DNA from: a virus
Strand: one strand, 5' to 3'
IMG/VR virus record: IMGVR_UViG_3300017989_004886
DNA length: 64,000 nucleotides
A program made the translations under genes and the position numbers. This document shows, piece by piece, positions 1 to 60,446 of this stretch. Below the pieces are notes generated by a model. That model was not told where the DNA came from, ran no database searches, and was given only the letters and a program-made list of their open reading frames with translations. Within the stretch, counting starts at the first letter, position 1. Every line of letters starts with the position of its first letter.

Positions 1-561
1 CAAATCAGACAAATCACTTTTAAAAGAAATAACCGAATCAATGATTATCTCCATAAAACAAGTAGGTTTATCGTTAATTATTGTATAGACAATAATATCG
101 ATACAATCATAATTGGTCACAACAAACAATGGAAGACTGAGGTTAACTTAGGCCATATCAACAATCAAAACTTTGTTCAAATACCATTTACTAAGTTAAT
201 CAATATGCTGAAATACAAATCAGAAGAGGTCAATATTAGAGTAATCACAAATGAAGAGAGTTATACTAGCAAGTGTAGCTTTCTTGACAATGAAGAAGTT
301 TGTAAACATAAAACTTATCTAGGCAAAAGAATCACTAGAGGCCTCTTCAAATCATCCAAGGGTGTTAAGATTAACTCAGATGTTAATGGTAGTTTGAATA
401 TAGCTAAGAAAGTAGTCACCAAGACTGGTTCAGATTCTAAAGTAGTCATCAAAGATAGTGGCGTTAAGCCAAGATCGGAGGTGATAGAGGGTGCTGCGCT
501 TCACCCTATTAGGGTTTACCCTGATAAATCAAATTTAATAAAGTTACTGAATGCTATTTAG
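1..561 (+). CDS. tnpB: TnpB-family RNA-guided nuclease, 5'-partial (TnpB-A)
   Basis: Frame open from base 1 (QIRQITFKRNNRINDYLHKTSR..IIIGHN..NNQNFVQIPF); EESYTSKCS, KRITRGLF and NSDVNGSLNI motifs. Confidence 0.9.
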   Translation, partial: QIRQITFKRNNRINDYLHKTSRFIVNYCIDNNIDTIIIGHNKQWKTEVNLGHINNQNFVQIPFTKLINMLKYKSEEVNIRVITNEESYTSKCSFLDNEEVCKHKTYLGKRITRGLFKSSKGVKINSDVNGSLNIAKKVVTKTGSDSKVVIKDSGVKPRSEVIEGAALHPIRVYPDKSNLIKLLNAI

Positions 562-4459: not shown

Positions 4460-4897
4460 TTAAACTCCAAGATCTTTAATTTGTTTTTCAAGTAAATTAA
4501 TTTGTTCATTTAATTCTTTGAAAGCTTCCTTCAAATTATTTTTTTCAGCCATTTCGGCCTTTATTTTTAAAGATACTAAAAAATGTTCTAATTGCTTCTT
4601 TTTGTTAATCTTAAGTTGTTTTTTAGGCTTTTTCTTTAAATTATTTTTCTTTACAACATAATCTTGTATGGGACAGGGCAAAGTAGCATCATCTAATTCT
4701 AAAATTGCATACAATCTTTGATCTATCTTTCCTAACTCATCATCTCTATTAGAAAAACTTACAGATAAAACTTCTCCAGTTTTCTTTCTATAAACAACAA
4801 TCGGTTTCAAAATCCTTTGATTAAATCTCTTCTTTTTAAAATCAAAATGCTGTTGGCCTAAAACTTCAAATTCTTTTTTCGTCTTTGCCTCTTTCAT
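4460..4897 (-). CDS. Lys-rich hypothetical protein, possibly fibre assembly
   Basis: AGGAG before MKEAKTK; the longer ORF-track start overlaps the neighbouring gene. Confidence 0.5.
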   Translation of the reverse strand: MKEAKTKKEFEVLGQQHFDFKKKRFNQRILKPIVVYRKKTGEVLSVSFSNRDDELGKIDQRLYAILELDDATLPCPIQDYVVKKNNLKKKPKKQLKINKKKQLEHFLVSLKIKAEMAEKNNLKEAFKELNEQINLLEKQIKDLGV

Positions 4898-4919
4898 TCT
4901 CACTCCTTTTAATCTAAAT

Positions 4920-5729
4920 TTAAATTGCTGGGGCATCGTCTTCCCAATAACCTGCAATATAAATATTTGCAAGAGATCCCGGGTTTCCTGTCCCAGCCAT
5001 ATAAATATTGCCTCCAGTATGTACCCAACCGCACATAGAATTAATTTGTGTAACACCTGGATTCGTTGTTGTCGCTGTTACCTGAAAAGTCGGACCTAAA
5101 GCAACTGGACCTATATGTTCTCCATAAATATCAATAAATTCAGTAGGTGCTCCAACATTATCCCAAAGCTCAACTATAACAAGACATCTTTCTGCAGTAG
5201 CTGGAACAAAATTAGCGACTGGCACTGCTGTAATAGGTATTGGAATATTACCTGAATAAACTAGAGTTGCTGCATACTGATCATATATAGCAAATTGGCC
5301 AAACTTTCTAAAATTAAGAAGAGCTCCTAAAGCATCTGTTCTGGTTGTTCCTACCCTACGGCTTAAATCATAGCCGGGAGGTAAAGTAGGACCAGGACCA
5401 TAAGGAGCTTCAATATTCGTTGAAAGTAGCCCAGCAGTAGGGAGATTTGCAGTAGAATCTCCAATTATATACAAATAATACCAAGTGAGCGCAGCTGCCG
5501 GAGGGCCAACATCTATAGCATTTGGTCCCGCTGGTGACGTTGTATCAACAATAATCCAAGGAGGCCCCCCAGCAGCTCTATGCCTTAAAGAGCGATAATT
5601 CTGGTCATCTACACCTGAAAACATTTCAATTTGAAGCCAAGTTCCAGTATTGAGTGTTAAAATTTTTAATACTGCATTTGTATCAGATACAAAAGACTGG
5701 CTTGCTTCAAGCCTTTTCTCAGGAGGCAT
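4920..5729 (-). CDS. Tail fibre-associated protein
   Basis: Paralogous segment with 2702-3508; G/P/T-rich. Confidence 0.6.
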   Translation of the reverse strand: MPPEKRLEASQSFVSDTNAVLKILTLNTGTWLQIEMFSGVDDQNYRSLRHRAAGGPPWIIVDTTSPAGPNAIDVGPPAAALTWYYLYIIGDSTANLPTAGLLSTNIEAPYGPGPTLPPGYDLSRRVGTTRTDALGALLNFRKFGQFAIYDQYAATLVYSGNIPIPITAVPVANFVPATAERCLVIVELWDNVGAPTEFIDIYGEHIGPVALGPTFQVTATTTNPGVTQINSMCGWVHTGGNIYMAGTGNPGSLANIYIAGYWEDDAPAI

Positions 5730-5742
5730 TTATATCTCCTTT

Positions 5743-8004
5743 CTACGCGGAAACATATTTAAATCTAACGTCGCATAACCGCATAACATCATTATAAGTA
5801 TCACTGAGATCTATTACATCTCTCTCAAATTCAAATGCTATAAATGTAGTATTACTAGTAAAGTGAGTTGGGACTAATGCAAGATTTACATATTCTACTG
5901 TATTTGCTGAGGCCCCAAAAGGAGTTACGGCAGTTGTTACTGTGGATCTATTACCCCCGGTTATAACATTTTCACCGTCATCTAAAACAGCATAGTGTAC
6001 ACGAACAAATATACCCGCCGCAGGTTGGGCAGTTAAACCAGAGGCAATCCAAAACTGAAGAGAAACCCCATAAACACCACCTAAGTGTATATCTCGAGGA
6101 GCAGGTATTGAAAAGCGAATTCTCTGTGTAGCAGTCGGAGAAAAATCTATAGAATCTATAGCTACAACACCAGAAACAGCTCCTGAAATAATCCCGGCTG
6201 TAGGGGAAGCAGAAGGATCCGCAGAAAAAGATGATACTGGAACACTTCTGGGTTCATTCGCAGTTGGACTTGTCCCAGTACCACCCTCAACTATAAGTTC
6301 ATAAATAGCTCCGGCAGCTGCTGGGACTGCCAAAATTACCTGTGTTGTAGAAGGTTCTGTATAATCATTTGGAAGAGTTAATTTTTTGCCATTTTTAAAA
6401 ACACGTAATGAATCATTTCCTGGAGTATAACTTCCAGAGGTAATATTTAAAATTGTCTGGCCCGCAGTTGCTGTAAATCTTTGATAAAGCTGGGGTGCTC
6501 CGGCACCTGGGCCACCGCCTCCCGAAATCCGAATAGCACTAACTCTTTCACCTGCAACTCTTCCATGAATAAATGTAATAGTATTAGAGGAAGACTCTAA
6601 ATAATCTAAATTATTTGTTTGAAGTTGCCCAGCACTAAAAACTAAAAGATCATCTGTACCTGGGGTATATGTAAAAGTAAAAGAGAAGATTTGCTGACCA
6701 GCTGCGGACGCAAAGTCATCTCGATTAATTTGAACACCTAAACCTCCACCCAAATTAAGAAAACCCCGAACATCTCTAATTTGAGAATCTAATATTTGTG
6801 TATCGCCTGGATTTACAGTAACTTCTGCAATAACTTGTTTATCAGTTGGGTAAACAGGAGCAACTGGAATAGCTCCTGGAATACCAGGTGTAATTGCAAG
6901 ATTGCCCCAGTCATCAATCGTTAATAAATCAATCTTAGGATTGCCTACAGGCAAAGCAAAAACAGGACTTGAGCCACCAGCATATGTAATTGCTTTTTGA
7001 CCATTTGACGAAATGTATGTTCCCGCTTCTACATAAACGGTCATATTTGGAGTAGTTTGCTGATGCGGCCTTAAAATCTTAATATTACCCAGAGTTACCG
7101 TATCATCCTTAAAGGAACCGTCTATATTAATTGAAACATCAATTCTAGGAGTATCAGTAGCTAAATTACTAAACATTCTAAGGTCTGTAAGCGAGGTTAT
7201 AGTTGTAGCATTTGAAACAAATTTAGCTAGCGGAGTATTAAATGTCGTAGGTAGAGTCGCAGCTAATTGTAAAGTTCCAGCATTGTCTATATAAAGATAT
7301 CGCGTTGAAGCAGCAGGTACCGCCCCAGCAAAAGATCCTAATGTATATTTTGTGTCTGCTACAAAACAAGAGCCTAAAGTCATTGCATAGGCCAAACCTC
7401 CCGTATGTGAAGGCCTTAAACCTGATATTACAAAATTGCGTGAGGCTTTTTTCCGGTCATCAGTTATCATCGTTGAGGTTATATTTGGATTGCCAGCTGT
7501 TCTACTAAGTGTAGCTATTTGTACATGAACTCTGCCGGCAGCTGGTTGAGGGATTGCTGTCCCTTCAGCAACTCTTACATTAATTACAGTCTTTTTACGA
7601 CAAGCAGTCTCAATACCTATTACAGGATCAATAATATTTGGGTCAACTGTGCCATCAATCTCTGTATCATAATACTCTATATAAACATAATCAGTTCTAT
7701 TAGCCCCAGGAGTCGTTAAACCTGTAATTAAGACATTACTGAATAGTGTTAACTCTCGACCTTCATTATAATAAGTACCTTGATAAATTAAAAGAGAATT
7801 TGGGCTACCGGATGAAAGAGATAAAAAACCATCGCCAATTGCTCCATTACCTATACCTGATTTTTCAATTAATTCTTCACGCCGACGATAAACATCTTGC
7901 CATTCATTCAGCTCAGCATCAAGAACTGGCCTATTTTGACTGAATATTAGTTCTTGATAACCCCGTGATGGGATAAACGTATCTCTCGAAACATTACTGC
8001 TCAC
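5743..8004 (-). CDS. Tail fibre/baseplate-attached protein with DUF4815-like N-terminus
   Basis: VSRDTF..FSQNRPVLDAELNEWQD start; two ATAGQT..YTPG.D.L.VF..G....DY.E repeats. Confidence 0.7.
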   Translation of the reverse strand: MSSNVSRDTFIPSRGYQELIFSQNRPVLDAELNEWQDVYRRREELIEKSGIGNGAIGDGFLSLSSGSPNSLLIYQGTYYNEGRELTLFSNVLITGLTTPGANRTDYVYIEYYDTEIDGTVDPNIIDPVIGIETACRKKTVINVRVAEGTAIPQPAAGRVHVQIATLSRTAGNPNITSTMITDDRKKASRNFVISGLRPSHTGGLAYAMTLGSCFVADTKYTLGSFAGAVPAASTRYLYIDNAGTLQLAATLPTTFNTPLAKFVSNATTITSLTDLRMFSNLATDTPRIDVSINIDGSFKDDTVTLGNIKILRPHQQTTPNMTVYVEAGTYISSNGQKAITYAGGSSPVFALPVGNPKIDLLTIDDWGNLAITPGIPGAIPVAPVYPTDKQVIAEVTVNPGDTQILDSQIRDVRGFLNLGGGLGVQINRDDFASAAGQQIFSFTFTYTPGTDDLLVFSAGQLQTNNLDYLESSSNTITFIHGRVAGERVSAIRISGGGGPGAGAPQLYQRFTATAGQTILNITSGSYTPGNDSLRVFKNGKKLTLPNDYTEPSTTQVILAVPAAAGAIYELIVEGGTGTSPTANEPRSVPVSSFSADPSASPTAGIISGAVSGVVAIDSIDFSPTATQRIRFSIPAPRDIHLGGVYGVSLQFWIASGLTAQPAAGIFVRVHYAVLDDGENVITGGNRSTVTTAVTPFGASANTVEYVNLALVPTHFTSNTTFIAFEFERDVIDLSDTYNDVMRLCDVRFKYVSA

Positions 8005-8019
8005 TTCAGATCTCCTTGA

Positions 8020-11000
8020 TCATCTTCTGCTCAATAAAGGTCTATAGCGTAAACGAAAAACATCATAAGCGGTTAAACCAGTAATCGAATAATCAGAATA
8101 AGCTGAACCAATAGTGCCTCCAGTTTTGGTATCAGTCAAAATAAACAAATATAACTCATTTTCAGGCGGCAAGCTAATGATAAACCAATGCACATACTGG
8201 ACAACAGCCGGATAAGGGGCATCAGGTGTTGGGTTTGAGTATTGAAAGAAATAAGGGTCAATCACACCAGTTCCTTTGTCTACAGTTAGGGCATCACTTA
8301 GGCCCCTTTGAGGAACTGGAACTGAATAAGAACCAGAAGGTGTTGTAACTCTTAATTTTAAGCCTTCATAGGTATGAGTGTAAGCAGTATAAGTAGAACT
8401 TAAGGGCGGAGCACCTGTAGTCGGCCTTGAATATATGACAGATGCTTGCTTAATTGATTCATATAAATCTAAACGTCTTAAACCAGTAGGCATTGCTGAA
8501 TCAACGACAGCGACAGCAGTCATATCGAGGTCAGCATCATAATAATTTCCATTTAAAGGTAATTTTGCAGATATTGAAGATATCTCAATATCAGTATAAC
8601 CAACCTGAGATGAAAGAGGAAAAGGAAGAGATACCCAACTATTGCCCCCCGTACCAATAGAATGCATTATGCCTTTTTGAGAAATTTGTTTAATAACAGC
8701 TTCATCAATGTCCAGACCAAGACCTTGATATGGGTCATATTCATAATAAATCTGCAGGCGATCACTTGCAGTGGGAGTATAAGTTGAAACAAACTCAAAG
8801 ATTATTGTATCAGCTGCACCTGGAGCAACAGGAAAAGCAACACTAACAGCCCCGGTACCTTCCCCATAATTTACTGTTATCTGTCTACGAAGTCCATTAA
8901 CATAGGCATAATTTTTTTCTCCTAATAAGTCTTCATAAACTCCCATTTTATGTATAATCTCCCCAGATGAAGATGTAACAGTATAATTACTTGCACCTGT
9001 ACCTGCCATTGATTCAGTTGCCGCCGCATAGGATTCAACTATGCCTTTTGCATGTCTTTCTATTGTAAGGCTTTTAATTCTAAGAGTAGCTTCATATTTA
9101 ATTACTTGATTTGTGGTAAAAACCTGCCCAAAAATTACAGTGTAACTTCCAACTGCTCTTGTAACACTACTAGGATGTATCTGAACTGGATTTAGTGGAT
9201 CAGTATAATTCCAAAATCTATAGAAACCTGTAATAGCAAATCCGGCTAATGTAGATGGGAAGTTATAAGTAGCTGTCCCGTTCCCTTGCATAAAACCATT
9301 ATAAACTCGCAAAGCTCCTTTCTGCGTACTAAAATAACTTGTTTGATTTGCAGCAGGATTAATATCTTCAATATAATCCTGATTACCTCCTATAGAAGGG
9401 AAGGCTGATAGAGTTGTCTCAAAAAGACCTACAGTCCGCTTTTCAAGTTCTATATAACTAAAACCCATTCTTTCATTCTGGGCTATATTCGCATTAAATG
9501 TATAGTAAAGATGATTTGGTACATGTCTAAAACCATCTCCTTGGTTTCCTACTACATGAGTCCATATCAGATAAAAAACTGCGTCAATGCGTCCTCCGGC
9601 TATATAATTAGGGTCAGCTACATCAATTGTCGCCCAAATTTGGTAATTACTAACGACATGCCAGCCTAAAGTTGCAACCGTATTTCCTGTAGATCTCCAA
9701 ACTAAGACTACTCCTGTGCCCGGAATTGTATTCGGAGCAATCGAAGTTATTGTTATATTTTTTAGGACTGTCTGGTAAGCAAAAGTAATATAAGCATTTG
9801 TAAAAGTGCTATCGGCATTTTCAAGAAATGAAAATGGAATAGTTTGAGTGATAGTTTTATCTGTAAACATTCGTCTAAAACCATCAGGAGCTGCAAAATC
9901 ATAAATACCTGGTTGATCCACAGCACTTATGCCGTCAACCTGAAGTAATTTTGTACCCTTCTGTGCCCCAACATAATCATTGCCCCAAGAATTTTGATTT
10001 TGTCCTCGAAGAAGTTGATCAAAATTTAAATTCACCATTTCAGAAAGACTACATTCACAATCTAAAACCAAATGCCGAAGATCTATGATATCCTTTTCAT
10101 TAATTTCGTCATTAAACATACCATCAGGTCTATCACTCTTAGTGCTATCTCCTACACTAACTCCTGACCCATTCGGGTTAGTGTGAACATTATAAGCAGT
10201 TGAGTTTCTGCGATGTACTCCTAAAACAGGAATTGCATAAATATAACCGTCTACTGTTCCAAGAACACTGCGAGAAGTTGAGTCACCATTCCCTGCTCTA
10301 AAAAGACCATGATCATTTGAAGTAGAACCTTGATTTGTATAGGTATAAGAAGTATCTCCAGTATTTGGACCACGTGCTTTTACAGTTGGGTCATCAACAC
10401 CTTCTGGATAATTAGTAAAGTTAACACCAGAAACAGTTCTAAGTCGAAATTGTAGTTGAACTCTCTGAGTAGTTTCAACACCTACAGACGGATCTTCCAT
10501 ATCATCTGTCAATTGAGTTCCACGATATTGAGTATTACCATACTTATAGATCTTGTCAACTGCCGGCTTATTAACTGTTGAATTAGGTCTAATTAATACT
10601 CTATATACTTCTAGGAAAATAAGATCTTGTCTTTGACCAGCAGCTGGCGGAGTCGGCATCTCTACCGAAATCCAACCATCTGTAGTAAAATTACCGCCCT
10701 CGACTGAACTATCGATAAGATCTAAAACCCAACCATTTACAATTGCTCTGAAATTCTGAATAATAAATTCATTTTCACCAAGAAATGCAGAAGGAAAAAC
10801 TATATCAGTTGTCCCTTTATAGAGTTCATCAAAACCAGATAAACGAAAGTTTAAAACACCAGACTGTAGTTTAATATTTGCCCGTCGAGATTGAACATCT
10901 CGAATATCCGACATTAAAGTTAATTCACTATCCAAAGGCGGTTTGCCCTTGTCCCAGACAACATCGAGAAAATTCCGATCATCTGGTTGTAATGTCCTGC

Positions 11001-50083: not shown

Positions 50084-51169
50084 AATCAAAAGGCAGGAAG
50101 ATGCAAGCTAAGCTATGAGCCCTAAGGCTCATAGTCCCGGTTATATCTCCCGGACACCCTCCTGTCTTTAAAATTGCACTCATTTTGTTTAGGTCCGAAG
50201 ACTGCTTTAAAATCTTCCCCAATAGATTTCCAATCTGAAGCAAGGGCTTCTTGATTTGTTCTATTTAAAATGCTATGGACATTTGGGTTGTGAAGGCCAC
50301 CCGAAAGATCAAAAAGCGAACCTATACCTTTAAAGAAATCTCTTATTTTCTGCATTATTTAAATCTCTTAAATTCTAACATTTATTTTACAAAGATTTAA
50401 CGTTTTAGCCAATGGAGATGTTCAGAAATCTCGTTTGCTTTAACAATCTTATGTGAACTCATCTCTTCGTATATGTGAGATCCCCAAACTCTAATAACTT
50501 CAACTATACCATCTAGATTAAGCCAAATAGAAAGTTTCTTCTTGTTGAGCCAAACTTCTAAAATTGTTTCTTTTTCCTCAGTGGTAGAGATGAAGAATTC
50601 TAAGTTCTCATCTTTTAAAATTTTCTGTATAATTTCTAACATTGTGAATCTCTGGTATTAGCCAAAATGTTAATGGTCAAATCATCGGATAAGTTGTATG
50701 TCCAGAATGAATAATTTGAAGACGCAAAGTGATAGAATGCACAGAGCCAAAAGGAAGTACAATAACAACCCCATTGTCTCCTTCGCGATAACAATCAAAT
50801 TTAATTTCTTCATCTATTCGAGCAAAATAACTTGCTAAAAAATTCTTAAGTTCTAAAATGAAAGATATATAGAAGGTTGGCTTCATTAGAAGACCTTCAT
50901 AGCGATTAAAAAACTCATTAAGATCTTTCTTGAATTTTTCTAAGCCTGCACTTAGAAAAATTTCATAACGAGCTTCAGGTGTTAAAGGATTTGGATTTTT
51001 AAGTGTGTTCACTGTCCAAATACCTTAAAAAAGCAGTTGCGATTTCTTTCTTTATCAAAAGGTGTGCTTCATGGTCGTTGAAATCACCAATACGATGTTT
51101 GGTTGCTTCTTATATGATTTCTTGGACTTCTTTTTTGATTTGTTCACGGTTCATGAATGCCCTCCTAAT

Positions 51170-51540: not shown

Positions 51541-51811
51541 TTATGTTTTGCTCGTTGAAATATTTCGAGTTATTCGATTCAACCATAACTGAATACCCGC
51601 TTTTTGCATCTCTAACAAATGATGGAGTTCTTTTAACAAATCCTCATAGTCTCTCTTATATGATACGACCAAGATACTCTCGTCATAACCTAGATGTAAA
51701 CTGTAACCTTTTACAGCATGATGATTAACAATGTAACCCGCTGTTTCAGTACCTTCTATTGGATAAGGTAGTTTAATGGGTGTAAGATCAGCGTTCATTA
51801 GTACCTCCTAA

Positions 51812-53292: not shown

Positions 53293-53311
53293 TCTATAAC
53301 ATTATACAAAG

Positions 53312-53340
53312 AACAAGACCAGATGTTTACTGGTCTTATT
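53312..53340 (-). terminator. Terminator-like hairpin related to 57076-57107
   Basis: AAGACCAG/CTGGTCTT stem after ORF 53361-53624. Confidence 0.6.
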
Positions 53341-53360
53341 GAATGTTCGCTATTGAATGT

Positions 53361-54377: not shown

Positions 54378-54833
54378 TTAACTTCCTTTGAAAGGTCGAA
54401 TTGTTTTTGTTTGAGCGCGTGTTTTCTTCAGGCGTCTGCGTGCTCGAATTTCTTTGCGAATCATCATTAGACGGCCAAGTATCTGATTACAAGGAGCACA
54501 CATCGTTCTGGTGTTATCTAAGTCACGTGAACCCATTTTTGCTTTGGGTTTGATATGGTCAACCGTGAATTCTATTAGTTTCGCTGTCCAACTATCTACT
54601 CCATAGAGAATAAGAACATGGCCTTCATTTTCTTTGTGGTAGTTTAAGGAAAAGTAGGGCGCTTTCAAACCACACAGATGACATTGTGTACCATTCTGCT
54701 TGAAAGATCTGAGTCTAAAAGAATTTCCTTTAACCTGTATGTTACCGATTTTAATCCATCTCACAGGGACCTGATCTAAGATCTCTTCGATCTCGTGATC
54801 TGAAATGTGTACTAGGTATTTTTTCTTGTTCAT
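54378..54833 (-). CDS. HNH endonuclease
   Basis: CHLC..TVDHIKPK..G..D..N...MC..CN. Confidence 0.85.
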   Translation of the reverse strand: MNKKKYLVHISDHEIEEILDQVPVRWIKIGNIQVKGNSFRLRSFKQNGTQCHLCGLKAPYFSLNYHKENEGHVLILYGVDSWTAKLIEFTVDHIKPKAKMGSRDLDNTRTMCAPCNQILGRLMMIRKEIRARRRLKKTRAQTKTIRPFKGS

Positions 54834-54837
54834 ATAA

Positions 54838-54910
54838 CTCGGGAGGAAGGGTTTGAACCTTCAACCTTCCGGGTCAAAGCCGGACGTTCTGCCAATTGAA
54901 CTACTCCCGA
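54838..54910 (-). tRNA. tRNA-Gln(UUG)
   Basis: TCGGGAG/CTCCCGA; TCCGG-CTTTGAC-CCGGA. Confidence 0.92.
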
Positions 54911-54964
54911 TCATCTTCTTTAGGAATCTCGCGATATTTAAGATTAAGTTAGGACACCAGACTT

Positions 54965-55102
54965 ACGCCTCGTCACCTAGGCAACTTCAAGAGAAGTTTG
55001 CTTTTGTTTGTTAGCAACATAAGCTACTAACTCACTCATCTTAACCCCACTTCTTTCAAAGTCAGGTAGCCTTATTCTCTTTGGGTTAGACGTAAACCCA
55101 CT
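54965..55102 (-). ncRNA. Putative omegaRNA scaffold of TnpB-B
   Basis: 138 nt colinear with 60321-60458; compensatory stem changes. Confidence 0.7.
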
Positions 55103-56353
55103 AGACAGTCGAGCAATGGCAAATTTGCCATTGCTTCCCTGCTTACTTTTGATTGCTATGTTAGCAGCCCCATTCACATCAGCATTGATTAGAGTGCCTT
55201 TAGAGGTCCCGAACAAACCTCTATGAATACGTTTACCTAGATAAGTAGTGTGTTTCTCTGGGTACTCTTCATCTAAGAAACTACACTTGGATGTGTAAGA
55301 CTCATCTTGAAAAATTAGTTCTAGACCATAGATTTGGCACTTGTGTTTAAGTTTTTGTTTGAAATTGGCGAATGGTATTTGTACAAAGTTTTGATTGTTG
55401 ATCTTACCTAGTTTGATACTTTGTTTGATCTCACTAGACCAGTCACCAATGATGATAGTGCCTATATCCTTTTGAGCACAATACTTGATAATATAGGAGA
55501 CCATTTGATTTAGATAGTTATTAATTTGATTCTTACGTTGTTGTGTTAGTCTGATTAGTCTTTTTGAACTCTTTTCTAGTTCAACTCCTTTCTTCTTTAA
55601 AGAGTTCTTGTGCTTGATGTAAACAGTCTTTAACTTTGCGGTTTGTTTGTTCCACCATCTGTTGATTGATTTGAGTTCTCGCCCATCCAGAATAAACGAA
55701 CGTCCAGATTGGCAATCCAAACAAGTGGCAAAGTTATCAAGACCACAATCTATACTTAAGAGATTTGATTTATCTAAGTTAAGATTAGTTTTTGATTCGT
55801 CATGTTCGTAAGTGATCGCTAGTTCAAAGTATTGAGCGTTGTTGTGTTGAATTATAGCTACTTGTTTGATTTTGCCTTTAAATTGTTTTTTAAATGAAAT
55901 CTTGATCTTGTAGTTAGTTTTTAGGTTATTTTCTCTACAGACTTGTTTTGATGGGTGAAAATAGAAATAAGTATCTGTAAAATTGAAACTCTTCGGTGAC
56001 AGATAGATATGATAATAACCATCTTTTGGAAGATAATGTGGCATTTTGACTTTACAGTGATAGTCACCTGATTTTTGTTTCTTCTTTAAAGCGAAGAATG
56101 ATCTAAAAGCCCAATCTATTCGAAGTTGGATGTGTGCTGCAACATCTGATTTCATCCTTTGTGTTTCTGGTAGTTGTTTTACTAAATTATGGCGAGCGTA
56201 CATACCTAAGAACTCACCATTATTAAAGAAATGTTGTCGCGTTATATAAAGAACTGAATTATAAAAATTTTTAGAATCTTTACACATTTGTTTAAGAAAT
56301 AGATAGTCCTGTTTTGATAATTTCCTAATCTGAATTTTTTGTGTAAGTATCAT
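54977..56353 (-). CDS. tnpB: TnpB-family RNA-guided nuclease (TnpB-B)
   Basis: SIDCG (RuvC-I), IIIGD, QDESYTSKCS, NADVNGAANI. Confidence 0.92.
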   Translation of the reverse strand: MILTQKIQIRKLSKQDYLFLKQMCKDSKNFYNSVLYITRQHFFNNGEFLGMYARHNLVKQLPETQRMKSDVAAHIQLRIDWAFRSFFALKKKQKSGDYHCKVKMPHYLPKDGYYHIYLSPKSFNFTDTYFYFHPSKQVCRENNLKTNYKIKISFKKQFKGKIKQVAIIQHNNAQYFELAITYEHDESKTNLNLDKSNLLSIDCGLDNFATCLDCQSGRSFILDGRELKSINRWWNKQTAKLKTVYIKHKNSLKKKGVELEKSSKRLIRLTQQRKNQINNYLNQMVSYIIKYCAQKDIGTIIIGDWSSEIKQSIKLGKINNQNFVQIPFANFKQKLKHKCQIYGLELIFQDESYTSKCSFLDEEYPEKHTTYLGKRIHRGLFGTSKGTLINADVNGAANIAIKSKQGSNGKFAIARLSSGFTSNPKRIRLPDFERSGVKMSELVAYVANKQKQTSLEVA

Positions 56354-56386
56354 ATCGATTATAATCGATAATTAGTAGAGTATTAA

Positions 56387-56459
56387 TGCTCCAGGAGGGA
56401 TTCGAACCCTCTTCTTCGGATCGAAAGTCCGAGATTTTATCCGATTAAACTACTGGAGC
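56387..56459 (-). tRNA. tRNA-Glu(UUC)
   Basis: GCTCCAG/CTGGAGC; TCGGA-CTTTCGA-TCCGA. Confidence 0.92.
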
Positions 56460-56461
56460 AT

Positions 56462-56818
56462 TCATAAAAATGGCTCCTCATCATCTAACTCTTCTATTTG
56501 TATTCCGCCTTCTCTTAACCATTTGGCAACTATGTGTCTGTGACAAAATTTATCCTTACCTTCATAACACAACAAAATAGCATCATTTCCTAGATCTTTA
56601 AGTACTTTTGTCGGCACAAAATTACGTTTTTTTATACATTCTAAATAGAGTTTTGTATACTCTTGTTCATTAATTTTACCTGATTTTAGATCTTTGACTA
56701 ACTGCATTGGTGGCCCAAGAAGAGGATAGTACTTACCTTTAAACCATTTTGGTTTTCCAGAAGTAATCGCGACTGCATTTGGATTATTTTTACTTTTAGC
56801 GAAGTATGATGTTTTCAT
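56462..56818 (-). CDS. DUF488-like protein
   Basis: TSYFA start; LLCYE....CHRHIVA.WL. Confidence 0.75.
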   Translation of the reverse strand: MKTSYFAKSKNNPNAVAITSGKPKWFKGKYYPLLGPPMQLVKDLKSGKINEQEYTKLYLECIKKRNFVPTKVLKDLGNDAILLCYEGKDKFCHRHIVAKWLREGGIQIEELDDEEPFL

Positions 56819-57075
56819 TTGATCTCGATTTCTACGACTCTTTTAATTGCTTTAATTTCTAATTCTTCAGCCCGAAAAACACGGTAATTTTCTAGCGTCC
56901 GGCTCTTGTCTTGCTCTAAACGATTTTTAATCCATCTGGAAGCAGCCTCTACATCCCCAAATTCTTTGATACCTTCACCATCATCATCCGCATAACCATC
57001 TGAATAATGAAGCAGGATGGTACTCATTTTATTTCCTTAAAAAGATGTTGATTATACAATTATTATTTTTACATT

Positions 57076-57107
57076 AAACAAGACCAGTAAACAAACTGGT
57101 CTTGTTT
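57076..57107 (-). terminator. Terminator hairpin, 13-bp stem
   Basis: AAACAAGACCAGT-N6-ACTGGTCTTGTTT. Confidence 0.7.
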
Positions 57108-57124
57108 GAATTTTATGTTATTAT

Positions 57125-58835: not shown

Positions 58836-58957
58836 ATTATACAAAATGAATACTTAAAAGTTTATTTATTTATCACTTTTTTATTAATTAAGACGGGCTT
58901 CAGAAATTTCTAAGATCTGGAAATTAGTTTCTACTTTAATTATACAAAATGAATACT
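58836..58957 (-). promoter_or_regulatory. Two identical 19-nt copies of a -10-containing element
   Basis: AGTATTCATTTTGTATAAT at 58836-58854 and 58939-58957. Confidence 0.6.
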
Positions 58958-59033
58958 AAAAGTTAATATAATTAACGTTCTAATAATTTACTAATTGGTT
59001 CTTATTTATGAATTAATAAAAGAGATAAAAATA

Positions 59034-60446
59034 ATGTATCTTGCACTTAAATCACAGATCAGAAAACTTAGTAAACAAGACTACCTCATCATCAAACAAA
59101 TGTGTAGAGATTCAAAAGATCTCTACAACAAATCTTTATACGAAGTCAGACAACACTTCTTTAAAACAAGTGGTCATCTCACCTACTTCTCAAGATACAA
59201 ACAGATGAAAAATCTTTCGTCTGTTAAGAGAATGAAGTCAGACTTTAGCATGCATGTACAACAAAGAGTTGATTTTGCCTTCAAATCATTCCTTGCTCTT
59301 GATAAAATGGCAAGAAATGGTGAGTATGATAAGGAAAAAGTAAATATACCACACTATCTACCCAAAGATGGTTATTATAACTTGTTTATGTCTCCGAAAA
59401 GTATTGGTTTTGATAGTGAGTATTTCTATTTTCACCCTACAAGTTATATCTGTAAAGATCTTCTATTGTCTCAGAAATACAAGATCAAAATACCTTTCAC
59501 CAAAAAAATAGAAGGTATAATCAAAGAAGTTCAGATCATACCTAAAAATAATGCTCGTTACTTCGAACTCTTAATCACCTATGAATATGATGAATCTAAA
59601 ACTAATCTTAAACTAAATAAAGATAATCTTCTAAGTATCGATCTTGGGCTAGATAACCTTGCCACTTGTCTTGATCTACAGTCTGGGCGATCATTTATTC
59701 TGGATGGTCGAAAACTCAAATCACTTAACAGATGGTGGAACAAAGAGGTGGCAAGGTTAAGAGGCATCTATGAAAAACAAAAGAATAGTCAAAAGAAGAA
59801 AGGAGAGAAAGTTCAGAAAAGTTCTAAACAACTTGATCGGTTGAGTAAGTGGAGAAAGGGCCAGATAGGTAATGCTCTCAACCAAATGGTGGCTCATGTT
59901 ATCAAGTACTGTGCAAGTCATAACATAGGTACTATTGTCATAGGTGACTGGAAAGGCATTAAAGATGGTATTCAGATGAGACATGAAACTAAACAAAACT
60001 TTGTCCAGTTACCCTACAACTTGTTCAAACAGAAACTCTACTCCAAATGTCAAATGTTTGGACTTGGCTGTGAGTTTCAAGAAGAGAGTTATACTTCTAA
60101 GTGTAGCTTTCTTGAGCAAGAAAAGATCTGTAAACACAAGAAATATATGGGCAAGAGAATTTATAGAGGCTTGTTCAGAACCTCTAAAGGCATTCACATC
60201 AACTCAGATGTGAATGGTGCAGGTAACATAGGTGTCAAGTTCTTGTTAAATCAAAAACAAAGTCAAGATCTAAAACAACGTATGCGAGGAGATCGGGTCA
60301 TTGATCCGATTGAACTGAGTAGTGGGCTTGCGCTTAGCCCAAAGAGAATAAGGCTACCTGACTTTGAAAAGAGCCAGGTTAAGATGAGTGAGTTAGTGGC
60401 TTTGGTTGCTAATGAACAAAAGCAAACTTCTCTTGAAGTTACTTAG
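59034..60446 (+). CDS. tnpB: TnpB-family RNA-guided nuclease (TnpB-C), paralog of TnpB-B
   Basis: SIDLG, IVIGD, QEESYTSKCS, NSDVNGAGNI; start at MYLAL aligns with TnpB-B. Confidence 0.92.
   Translation: MYLALKSQIRKLSKQDYLIIKQMCRDSKDLYNKSLYEVRQHFFKTSGHLTYFSRYKQMKNLSSVKRMKSDFSMHVQQRVDFAFKSFLALDKMARNGEYDKEKVNIPHYLPKDGYYNLFMSPKSIGFDSEYFYFHPTSYICKDLLLSQKYKIKIPFTKKIEGIIKEVQIIPKNNARYFELLITYEYDESKTNLKLNKDNLLSIDLGLDNLATCLDLQSGRSFILDGRKLKSLNRWWNKEVARLRGIYEKQKNSQKKKGEKVQKSSKQLDRLSKWRKGQIGNALNQMVAHVIKYCASHNIGTIVIGDWKGIKDGIQMRHETKQNFVQLPYNLFKQKLYSKCQMFGLGCEFQEESYTSKCSFLEQEKICKHKKYMGKRIYRGLFRTSKGIHINSDVNGAGNIGVKFLLNQKQSQDLKQRMRGDRVIDPIELSSGLALSPKRIRLPDFEKSQVKMSELVALVANEQKQTSLEVT

Follow-up and report, generated by a model that had tools for sequence, protein, structure and literature searches.

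A viral TnpB gene lodged between two tRNA genes, with a guide antisense to tRNA-Glu

In TnpB elements the guide is whatever DNA adjoins the right end of the element. In engineered polycistronic tRNA-guide RNA (tRNA-gRNA) arrays, guides are released by RNase P together with 3'-processing enzymes. The present study deals with a stretch of viral DNA of 64,000 nucleotides (nt) from the IMG/VR record IMGVR_UViG_3300017989_004886, hereafter the window, where a gene encoding a TnpB-family protein, tnpB-B, lies between a tRNA-Glu gene and a tRNA-Gln gene. A preliminary description of this locus had proposed a natural tRNA-guide array, in which tRNA processing releases the mRNA and RNase P at tRNA-Gln bounds the 3' end of the guide. 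The Glu-TnpB-Gln arrangement is not a chance pattern. Our favoured explanation, to which we assign a probability of roughly 0.6, is that TnpB-B belongs to a selfish TnpB-only element which is adapted to phages and resides in a tRNA cluster, that its guide is a relic of tRNA-Glu, and that its link to tRNAs stems from its landing sites.

The engineered arrays resemble this locus in placing a guide RNA between tRNAs of the same orientation, probably on a single transcript, so that RNase P and 3'-processing enzymes would act on either side of it. Here, however, neither tRNA is joined directly to the guide (tRNA-Gln is 54 nt downstream, gene and promoter are upstream), and the layout is not kept in the sister copies of the element, which are TnpB-A in the same window and the metagenomic relatives L003 and L004 (79% and 81% amino acid (aa) identity to TnpB-B, respectively). 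TnpB-only elements of the IS200/IS605 type, such as those of ISDra2 TnpB (8H1J, 8EXA) and ISFba1 TnpB (8IAZ), possess the same fold with OrfB_IS605 and TNB domains, and likewise have a scaffold over the gene 3' end, a guide from the right flank and several copies at different sites. In contrast to these elements, TnpB-B displays no sequence-level match to any solved TnpB, carries Gly instead of the RuvC-II Glu and is devoid of the CxxC zinc finger; no TnpA is seen near the element, and its left end comprises only 33 nt with a promoter motif and a palindrome. TnpB clades with a Glu-to-Gly exchange in RuvC-II (RIIr) keep a compensating Glu, the zinc finger is lost in some TnpB branches, and some of the rearranged branches are virus-specific (PMC10691335). 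TnpB-B has the Glu-to-Gly exchange, another conserved Glu and the zinc finger loss in common with them, though it is likened to these clades by residues and not by tree placement, and compensation by its E351 is judged from conservation only. A selfish nuclease gene between phage tRNA genes is also known from T4, where it encodes SegB (PMC2330249; reviewed in PMC13565253). The present locus resembles the SegB type in its HNH neighbour, in tRNA genes as possible targets and in an adjacent, putatively resistant allele; it differs in that recognition by TnpB-B would be by an RNA guide and not by protein, and homing is here proposed from sequence alone.

The first 17 nt of the TnpB-B guide are the exact reverse complement of positions 34-18 of canonical tRNA-Glu(UUC), GTTAGGACACCAGACTT (coordinates of all features are given in Table 1). 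They match at least 101 tRNA-Glu genes at 100%, within a set that had been fetched with the 16-mer itself. Within the 64 kb, AGGACACCNNNCTT, a signature of tRNA-Glu, has a single occurrence, which coincides exactly with the right-end boundary of the element; we estimate that chance would produce about 0.03 such exact matches in a window of this size. Past these 17 nt the likeness to tRNA-Glu is lost, and the other 37 nt of the spacer up to tRNA-Gln are not tRNA-like: an Rfam scan by E-value for partial tRNAs in the 54-nt spacer revealed no tRNA likeness in this remainder, and the fold of the spacer is insignificant (z = 0.22). By motif search, the tRNA-Glu of the window itself is of a non-canonical type without the D-arm signature AGGACACC. 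No second match to the guide of TnpB-B or TnpB-A was found inside the 64-kb window, and the guides of TnpB-A, L003 and L004 showed no tRNA likeness in a tRNA set biased towards tRNA-Glu. Searching IMG/VR with the first 16 guide nt returned 10 matches, about chance level, one of which is located inside a tRNA-Glu (locus L026, see below). Bacterial genome contigs yielded, among the matches listed, mostly tRNA-Glu genes of Bifidobacteriaceae and random hits, with no pointer to the host. On the antisense strand of canonical tRNA-Glu, the match is preceded by ATTGA, one base off the ATTAA at the left junctions of B, L003 and L004. The guide is most likely a relic of an antisense insertion into the anticodon loop of tRNA-Glu, between positions 35 and 34. 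A literature search on TnpB in phage anticodon loops found nothing relevant, and the tRNA-Glu identity of the guide, as judged from this match, is a new result.

The boundary between guide and scaffold was set to the nucleotide. The scaffold covers the last ~150 nt of tnpB-B, extends 12 nt beyond the TAG stop codon and ends with ...GGCGT. TnpB-B and TnpB-A share 86% DNA identity over the last ~145 nt up to GGCGT, followed by an abrupt loss of similarity, and the sequence after GGCGT differs in each of the four copies (B, A, L003 and L004). RNAalifold on these four copies predicted 53 pairs, 6 of them with compensatory changes. In L003, the homology of the flank to window positions 51109..51020 starts right after GGCGT. 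The alignments thus reveal a predicted structured omegaRNA that overlaps the gene 3' end, together with a variable guide derived from the flank.

L003 also lies in a tRNA region, which is syntenic with that of the window, but at another place within it. One of its flanks corresponds to window positions 51681..51553 and the other to 51109..51020; in the window, tRNA-Met, a small open reading frame (ORF) and tRNA-Ser occupy the interval. A small ORF at 51153..51000 on the minus strand, with the strong Shine-Dalgarno sequence MNREQIKKEVQEII, ends at a TAA; past that TAA the frame stays open for a further 37 codons, which share 70% identity with the DNA that adjoins the L003 TnpB element on its right. 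The right end of L003 abuts exactly at this TAA. The window site at 51109.., preceded by ...ATATAA, looks like the empty counterpart of the L003 insertion site, and the two would make a natural pair of filled and empty sites.

The left end of the element is also conserved. The 33 nt ahead of the ATG are near-identical in B, L003 (141-173) and L004 (5968-6000), with TTAATAYTYTACTAAT followed by a TCGATTATAATCGAT core. Upstream of them lies the 3' end of a tRNA in B and L004 and the stop codon of a protein gene in L003. The left end travels with the element, because it is kept in all three copies while the upstream DNA of L003 differs. Its first letters, TTAA(T), may constitute a target-adjacent motif (TAM). 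The sequence at the left junction is ATTAA for B, L003 and L004 and TCTAA for A, and the putative original sites read ATTGA (tRNA-Glu antisense) and TATAA (the L003-like site of the window), all from few copies.

The left end further bears a promoter-like motif of the virus. Ten matches to ATAATYYACTAAT with at most one mismatch were detected in the window, against 1.1 expected, and eight of them are on the minus strand. All but one of the ten sit 17-43 nt upstream of gene starts on the same strand, including both full TnpB genes; the plus-strand match ahead of TnpB-A is among these nine. A promoter scan also found a sigma70-like TTAATA-17-TATAAT in the left end with a score of 10/12. No Shine-Dalgarno sequence was found ahead of the tnpB-B ATG. 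From these motifs we infer that a promoter of phage type comes with the element itself. Since the left end carries both the promoter motif and TTAATA-17-TATAAT, the 5' end of the mRNA would need no processing of tRNA-Glu, and the mRNA release assumed in the preliminary description would become dispensable.

Folded as RNA, the palindrome of the left end can form a modest hairpin that extends up to the AUG (-5.6 kcal/mol, z = -2.3). L003 and L004 retain the 14-nt core of the palindrome, TCGATTATAATCGA, which TnpB-A lacks. The palindrome may be a hairpin of the 5' untranslated region, an operator or a DNA hairpin of the left end. Pairing with a similar right-end hairpin, as for the ends of IS608, was considered and rejected, the right-end hairpin AACTTC..GAAGTT being unrelated in sequence. 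Upstream of TnpB-A, 23-nt direct repeats (ATTATACAAAATGAATACT..) are present twice on the plus strand, at 58836-58858 and 58939-58961, 103 nt apart.

The layout given in the preliminary description agrees with our annotation. By the Rfam ends, tRNA-Glu and the ATG are 33 nt apart, this gap contains both the palindrome, which is perfect over 18 nt, and a promoter-motif variant with one mismatch, and the scaffold stops exactly 54 nt ahead of tRNA-Gln (54964..54911), similarity to TnpB-A ceasing after ...GGCGT at 54965. Every feature is on the minus strand, where tRNA-Glu, tnpB-B with its scaffold and tRNA-Gln follow each other from 5' to 3', and position 54838 is the 3' end of tRNA-Gln.

Table 1. 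Features of the tnpB-B locus, its neighbours and the sister copy in the window.
Feature	Position	Strand	Remarks
tRNA-Glu(UUC)	56459..56387	minus	Rfam 69.4 bits; ARAGORN ends 56460..56386
Left end, 33 nt	56386..56354	minus	between tRNA-Glu 3' end (Rfam ends) and ATG
Promoter-motif variant ATACTCTACTAAT	56383..56371	minus	one mismatch to ATAATYYACTAAT
Perfect palindrome, 18 nt, TATCGATTATAATCGATA	56353..56370	minus	last A is the A of the tnpB-B ATG
tnpB-B, 458 aa	56353..54977	minus	Pfam OrfB_IS605 5e-18; Cas12f1-like_TNB 4e-10
Guide-RNA (omegaRNA) scaffold	55130..54965	minus	similarity and covariation across copies
Guide segment, 17 nt	54964..54948	minus	exact antisense of canonical tRNA-Glu(UUC) positions 34-18
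Rest of spacer, 37 nt	54947..54911	minus	presumably tRNA-Gln leader
tRNA-Gln(UUG)	54910..54838	minus	ARAGORN and Rfam, 69.8 bits
HNH endonuclease ORF	54833..54378	minus	Pfam 1e-8; begins 4 nt past tRNA-Gln
DUF488 (N3a subclade) protein gene	56462-56818	minus	end 1-2 nt ahead of tRNA-Glu
Sister copy TnpB-A, 470 aa	59034..60460 (ORF 59034..60446)	plus	60% protein identity; guide from 60459

An AlphaFold2 model of TnpB-B was obtained from 36 homologues with a mean predicted local distance difference test (pLDDT) score of 82.9. The best Foldseek matches of the model are AsCas12f (7e-19), followed by ISFba1 and ISDra2 TnpB (~3e-14), with template modelling (TM) scores of 0.6-0.75; a search of solved structures with the TnpB-B sequence gave no TnpB match. 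As modelled, TnpB-B is an RNA-guided nuclease of the TnpB/Cas12f fold. Its RuvC-II motif is IIIGDW, in which Gly303 takes the canonical Glu position, and D202, G303, E351 and D392 are invariant in the 36 homologues, down to 39% identity. The protein is full-length without C-terminal truncation. E351 would be the compensating glutamate. Because D202, E351 and D392 are invariant and the published Glu-to-Gly clades keep such a residue (PMC10691335), we take TnpB-B to be probably active in catalysis despite its rearranged RuvC-II.

The ORFs examined near tnpB-B (DUF488, HNH and unknowns) contain no TnpA domain, and the 33-nt left end is too short to hold a tnpA gene. An adjacent TnpA of the Y1 or serine recombinase type, which would denote an autonomous IS200/IS605 or IS607 element, is thus missing among the neighbouring ORFs. 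A third and more divergent TnpB is represented by its C-terminal 186 aa at window positions 1-561 (plus strand; TNB 6e-11), truncated at the first position of the window. It differs from copies A and B in its C-terminus and in the sequence that follows, and it presumably has a different guide-RNA scaffold.

Besides L003 and L004, three relatives at 60-70% were identified (P0004, P0006 and P0007). No near-identical DNA was found in GenBank phages, and no close relatives were found in IMG/VR, searched by protein, alignment and scaffold motif, or in GTDB genomes. Among B, A, L003 and L004, a tRNA shortly after the scaffold occurs in B only. TnpB-A lacks any flanking tRNA and converges on a 665-aa ORF, L003 is followed by an 83-aa ORF and then by tRNA-Ser at 388 nt, and L004 has no tRNA within 2 kb downstream. 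Upstream of L004, a tRNA(CUA) is found at the same 33-nt distance from TnpB. This tRNA is 75% identical to the tRNA-Glu of the window and at most 63% identical to the seven other window tRNAs, and for this reason the junction most likely derives from the same ancestral insertion as that of B and is not counted as an independent recurrence. The tRNA(CUA), at 5894-5968 directly ahead of TnpB, is of the amber suppressor type, and ARAGORN detected a transfer-messenger RNA (tmRNA) gene at 9366-9711, 2 kb downstream of the L004 TnpB. Together, these two genes hint at functions in stop-codon recoding or translation rescue.

A survey of 16 other viral TnpB loci (14 from GenBank phages and two from IMG/VR contigs, with flanks of 2.5 kb or more in every case) did not bear out the recurrent tnpB-tRNA linkage that a natural array would lead one to expect. 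None of the 16 has an adjacent tRNA; 15 are free of tRNA genes within 2.5 kb, and the remaining one has a tRNA 2.4 kb upstream. L026 is a partial exception, in which an IS607-type pair at 4484-6529, consisting of a resolvase TnpA with a MerR helix-turn-helix domain (242 aa) and a TnpB (385 aa), is located inside an array of 14 tRNAs in a provirus by the IMG/VR classification. The tRNA-His of L026 begins 100 nt past the TnpB stop codon, and a tRNA-Glu 0.9 kb upstream of the pair bears the exact 16-mer matched by the TnpB-B guide.

Close spacing of tRNAs and ORFs is not special to TnpB-B. An ATG follows within 4-33 nt after seven of the eight window tRNAs (trailers were read, and the ORF list was checked for some), several of these ATGs are preceded by a strong Shine-Dalgarno sequence, and several window ORFs end 0-10 nt ahead of the next tRNA. 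This tight packing is found throughout the region, and co-processing of tRNA and mRNA would therefore be general here and not specific to TnpB. The HNH endonuclease ORF is a second gene for a selfish-type nuclease that abuts a tRNA 3' end. A GC-containing hairpin, AAGACCAG..CTGGTCTT, was found twice in the window, at 53301-53346 and 57048-57109, in each case followed by TTGTATAAT on the minus strand; one of the copies is just ahead of tRNA-Pro. Each pair may combine a terminator with a promoter, and the two would then flank the block of tRNA-Glu, tnpB-B, tRNA-Gln and HNH.

The tRNA-processing reading of the preliminary description stands in one respect. Co-transcription of tnpB-B with the tRNAs is plausible, as all parts are co-oriented and the scan of the minus strand from 56460 to 54838 detected no terminator-like site. 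With no terminator past the guide, some nuclease must make its 3' end. If tRNA-Gln matures from the shared transcript, RNase P must cut 54 nt past the scaffold, and such processing likely takes place. A selected device would go further, the mRNA being freed when tRNA-Glu is processed at its 3' end and the guide 3' end being defined by RNase P at tRNA-Gln. We hold such a device to be improbable, even though the tRNA-His 100 nt after another TnpB stop codon in L026 and the upstream tRNA of L004 at the same 33-nt distance would fit it. There is no sign that the processing is needed or selected. The mobile left end bears its own promoter-like motif, and the distance between scaffold and tRNA-Gln is 54 nt instead of 16-20 nt, with a tRNA-derived guide segment of 17 nt, which does not suit a guide bounded by tRNA-Gln. 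TnpB-A, L003 and L004 have the same scaffold with no near downstream tRNA, none of the 16 other viral loci adjoins a tRNA, the upstream tRNA of L004 probably goes back to the same ancestral insertion, and most tRNAs in the region are tightly packed with ORFs anyway.

The guide sequence itself could also be under selection. TnpB-B would then be an RNA-guided homing or marker-exclusion nuclease directed against canonical tRNA-Glu(UUC) genes of the host or of rival phages, and the adjacent divergent tRNA-Glu would be a cut-resistant allele co-inherited with the nuclease, an RNA-guided counterpart of T4 SegB. Cutting would drive the co-inheritance of nuclease and resistant tRNA, or harm the DNA of host or rival. 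This reading, which we regard as unlikely, accommodates the perfect 17-nt match to a conserved segment of the D-arm and anticodon stem that ends at about one guide length, the lack of the target in the window's own tRNA-Glu directly beside tnpB, and the invariance of the expected catalytic residues. The 16-mer target is further present in phage-like tRNA arrays (L026 and L096) and, among the matches listed, in many bacterial tRNA-Glu genes, and there are precedents in T4 SegB (PMC2330249) and in TnpA-independent, non-restorative homing (PMC13565253). However, the tRNA site would offer TTGA as its TAM, as opposed to TTAA at the left junctions, and the right flank of L004, which shares the left junction, matches at only about 9 of 15 positions, which means that the guide is not kept in the one comparable relative. 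An insertion relic accounts for the match without selection. It is very improbable that TnpB-B is a domesticated, nuclease-dead RNA-guided repressor similar to TldR, acting for instance on tRNA-Glu transcription. The canonical RuvC-II Glu and the zinc-finger cysteines are missing, the neighbouring ORFs tested include no TnpA, and the guide matches a conserved gene, all of which would fit such a repressor. Yet D202, D392 and the alternative Glu351 are invariant in 36 homologues, which fits the rearrangement described in PMC10691335 and not decay, the protein is full-length without C-terminal truncation, and multiple copies at different sites with flank-derived guides represent transposon behaviour.

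According to the selfish-element explanation that we favour, TnpB-B is a transposase-less member of the IS200/IS605-IS607 superfamily that would have adapted to large phages and become lodged in a region of tRNA genes. The mobile unit would consist of the 33-nt promoter-bearing left end with the palindrome at the start codon, tnpB, and the omegaRNA scaffold that overlaps the gene 3' end. The element, or a copy that donated its right flank, would once have landed in the anticodon loop of a tRNA-Glu, 3' of TTGA on the antisense strand. The left flank is now a divergent tRNA-Glu, intact and oppositely oriented, with TTAA after it; L004 shares this left flank. The locus is probably a recombinant of two copies or a co-converted patch. 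Recombination or co-conversion is assumed as the most economical explanation, because one simple insertion cannot yield both flanks. Such elements would choose T-rich sites in tRNA loops or trailers, and a tRNA cluster already rich in selfish genes, such as the HNH gene next door, would tolerate them. The transcripts would be cut by the tRNA machinery like those of other ORFs in the region, which would be incidental to TnpB.

Several points weigh against this explanation. A single simple insertion does not account for the two flanks, and the recombination step had to be assumed. The surviving part of tRNA-Glu is only 17 nt, about one guide length, and a selected guide would explain this no less well than neutral decay. 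The TAM candidates disagree, with ATTAA at the left junctions, ATTGA at the tRNA-Glu site and TATAA at the window site. An empty allele of the exact site (tRNA-Glu 3' end plus TTAA) was not found in GenBank phages or IMG/VR, the ORFs screened for TnpA are a minority of those in the window, and catalytic competence is deduced from conservation and a published AlphaFold argument. L026 provides a second TnpB with a tRNA close downstream, and a functional link to the downstream tRNA is possible.

Taken as a selfish element, a phage TnpB between tRNAs would be explained without a new mechanism of RNA processing. Loops and trailers of tRNAs would serve as landing sites, and tRNA clusters as tolerant dumping grounds for selfish nucleases. 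TnpB-B supplies a nucleotide-precise boundary between scaffold and guide, and points to a compact, phage-adapted TnpB lineage with a 33-nt promoter-bearing left end, a probably rearranged active site and no zinc finger. Its tRNA-Glu guide, located beside a putatively resistant tRNA-Glu allele, would offer a concrete and cheap test case for RNA-guided homing between phages.

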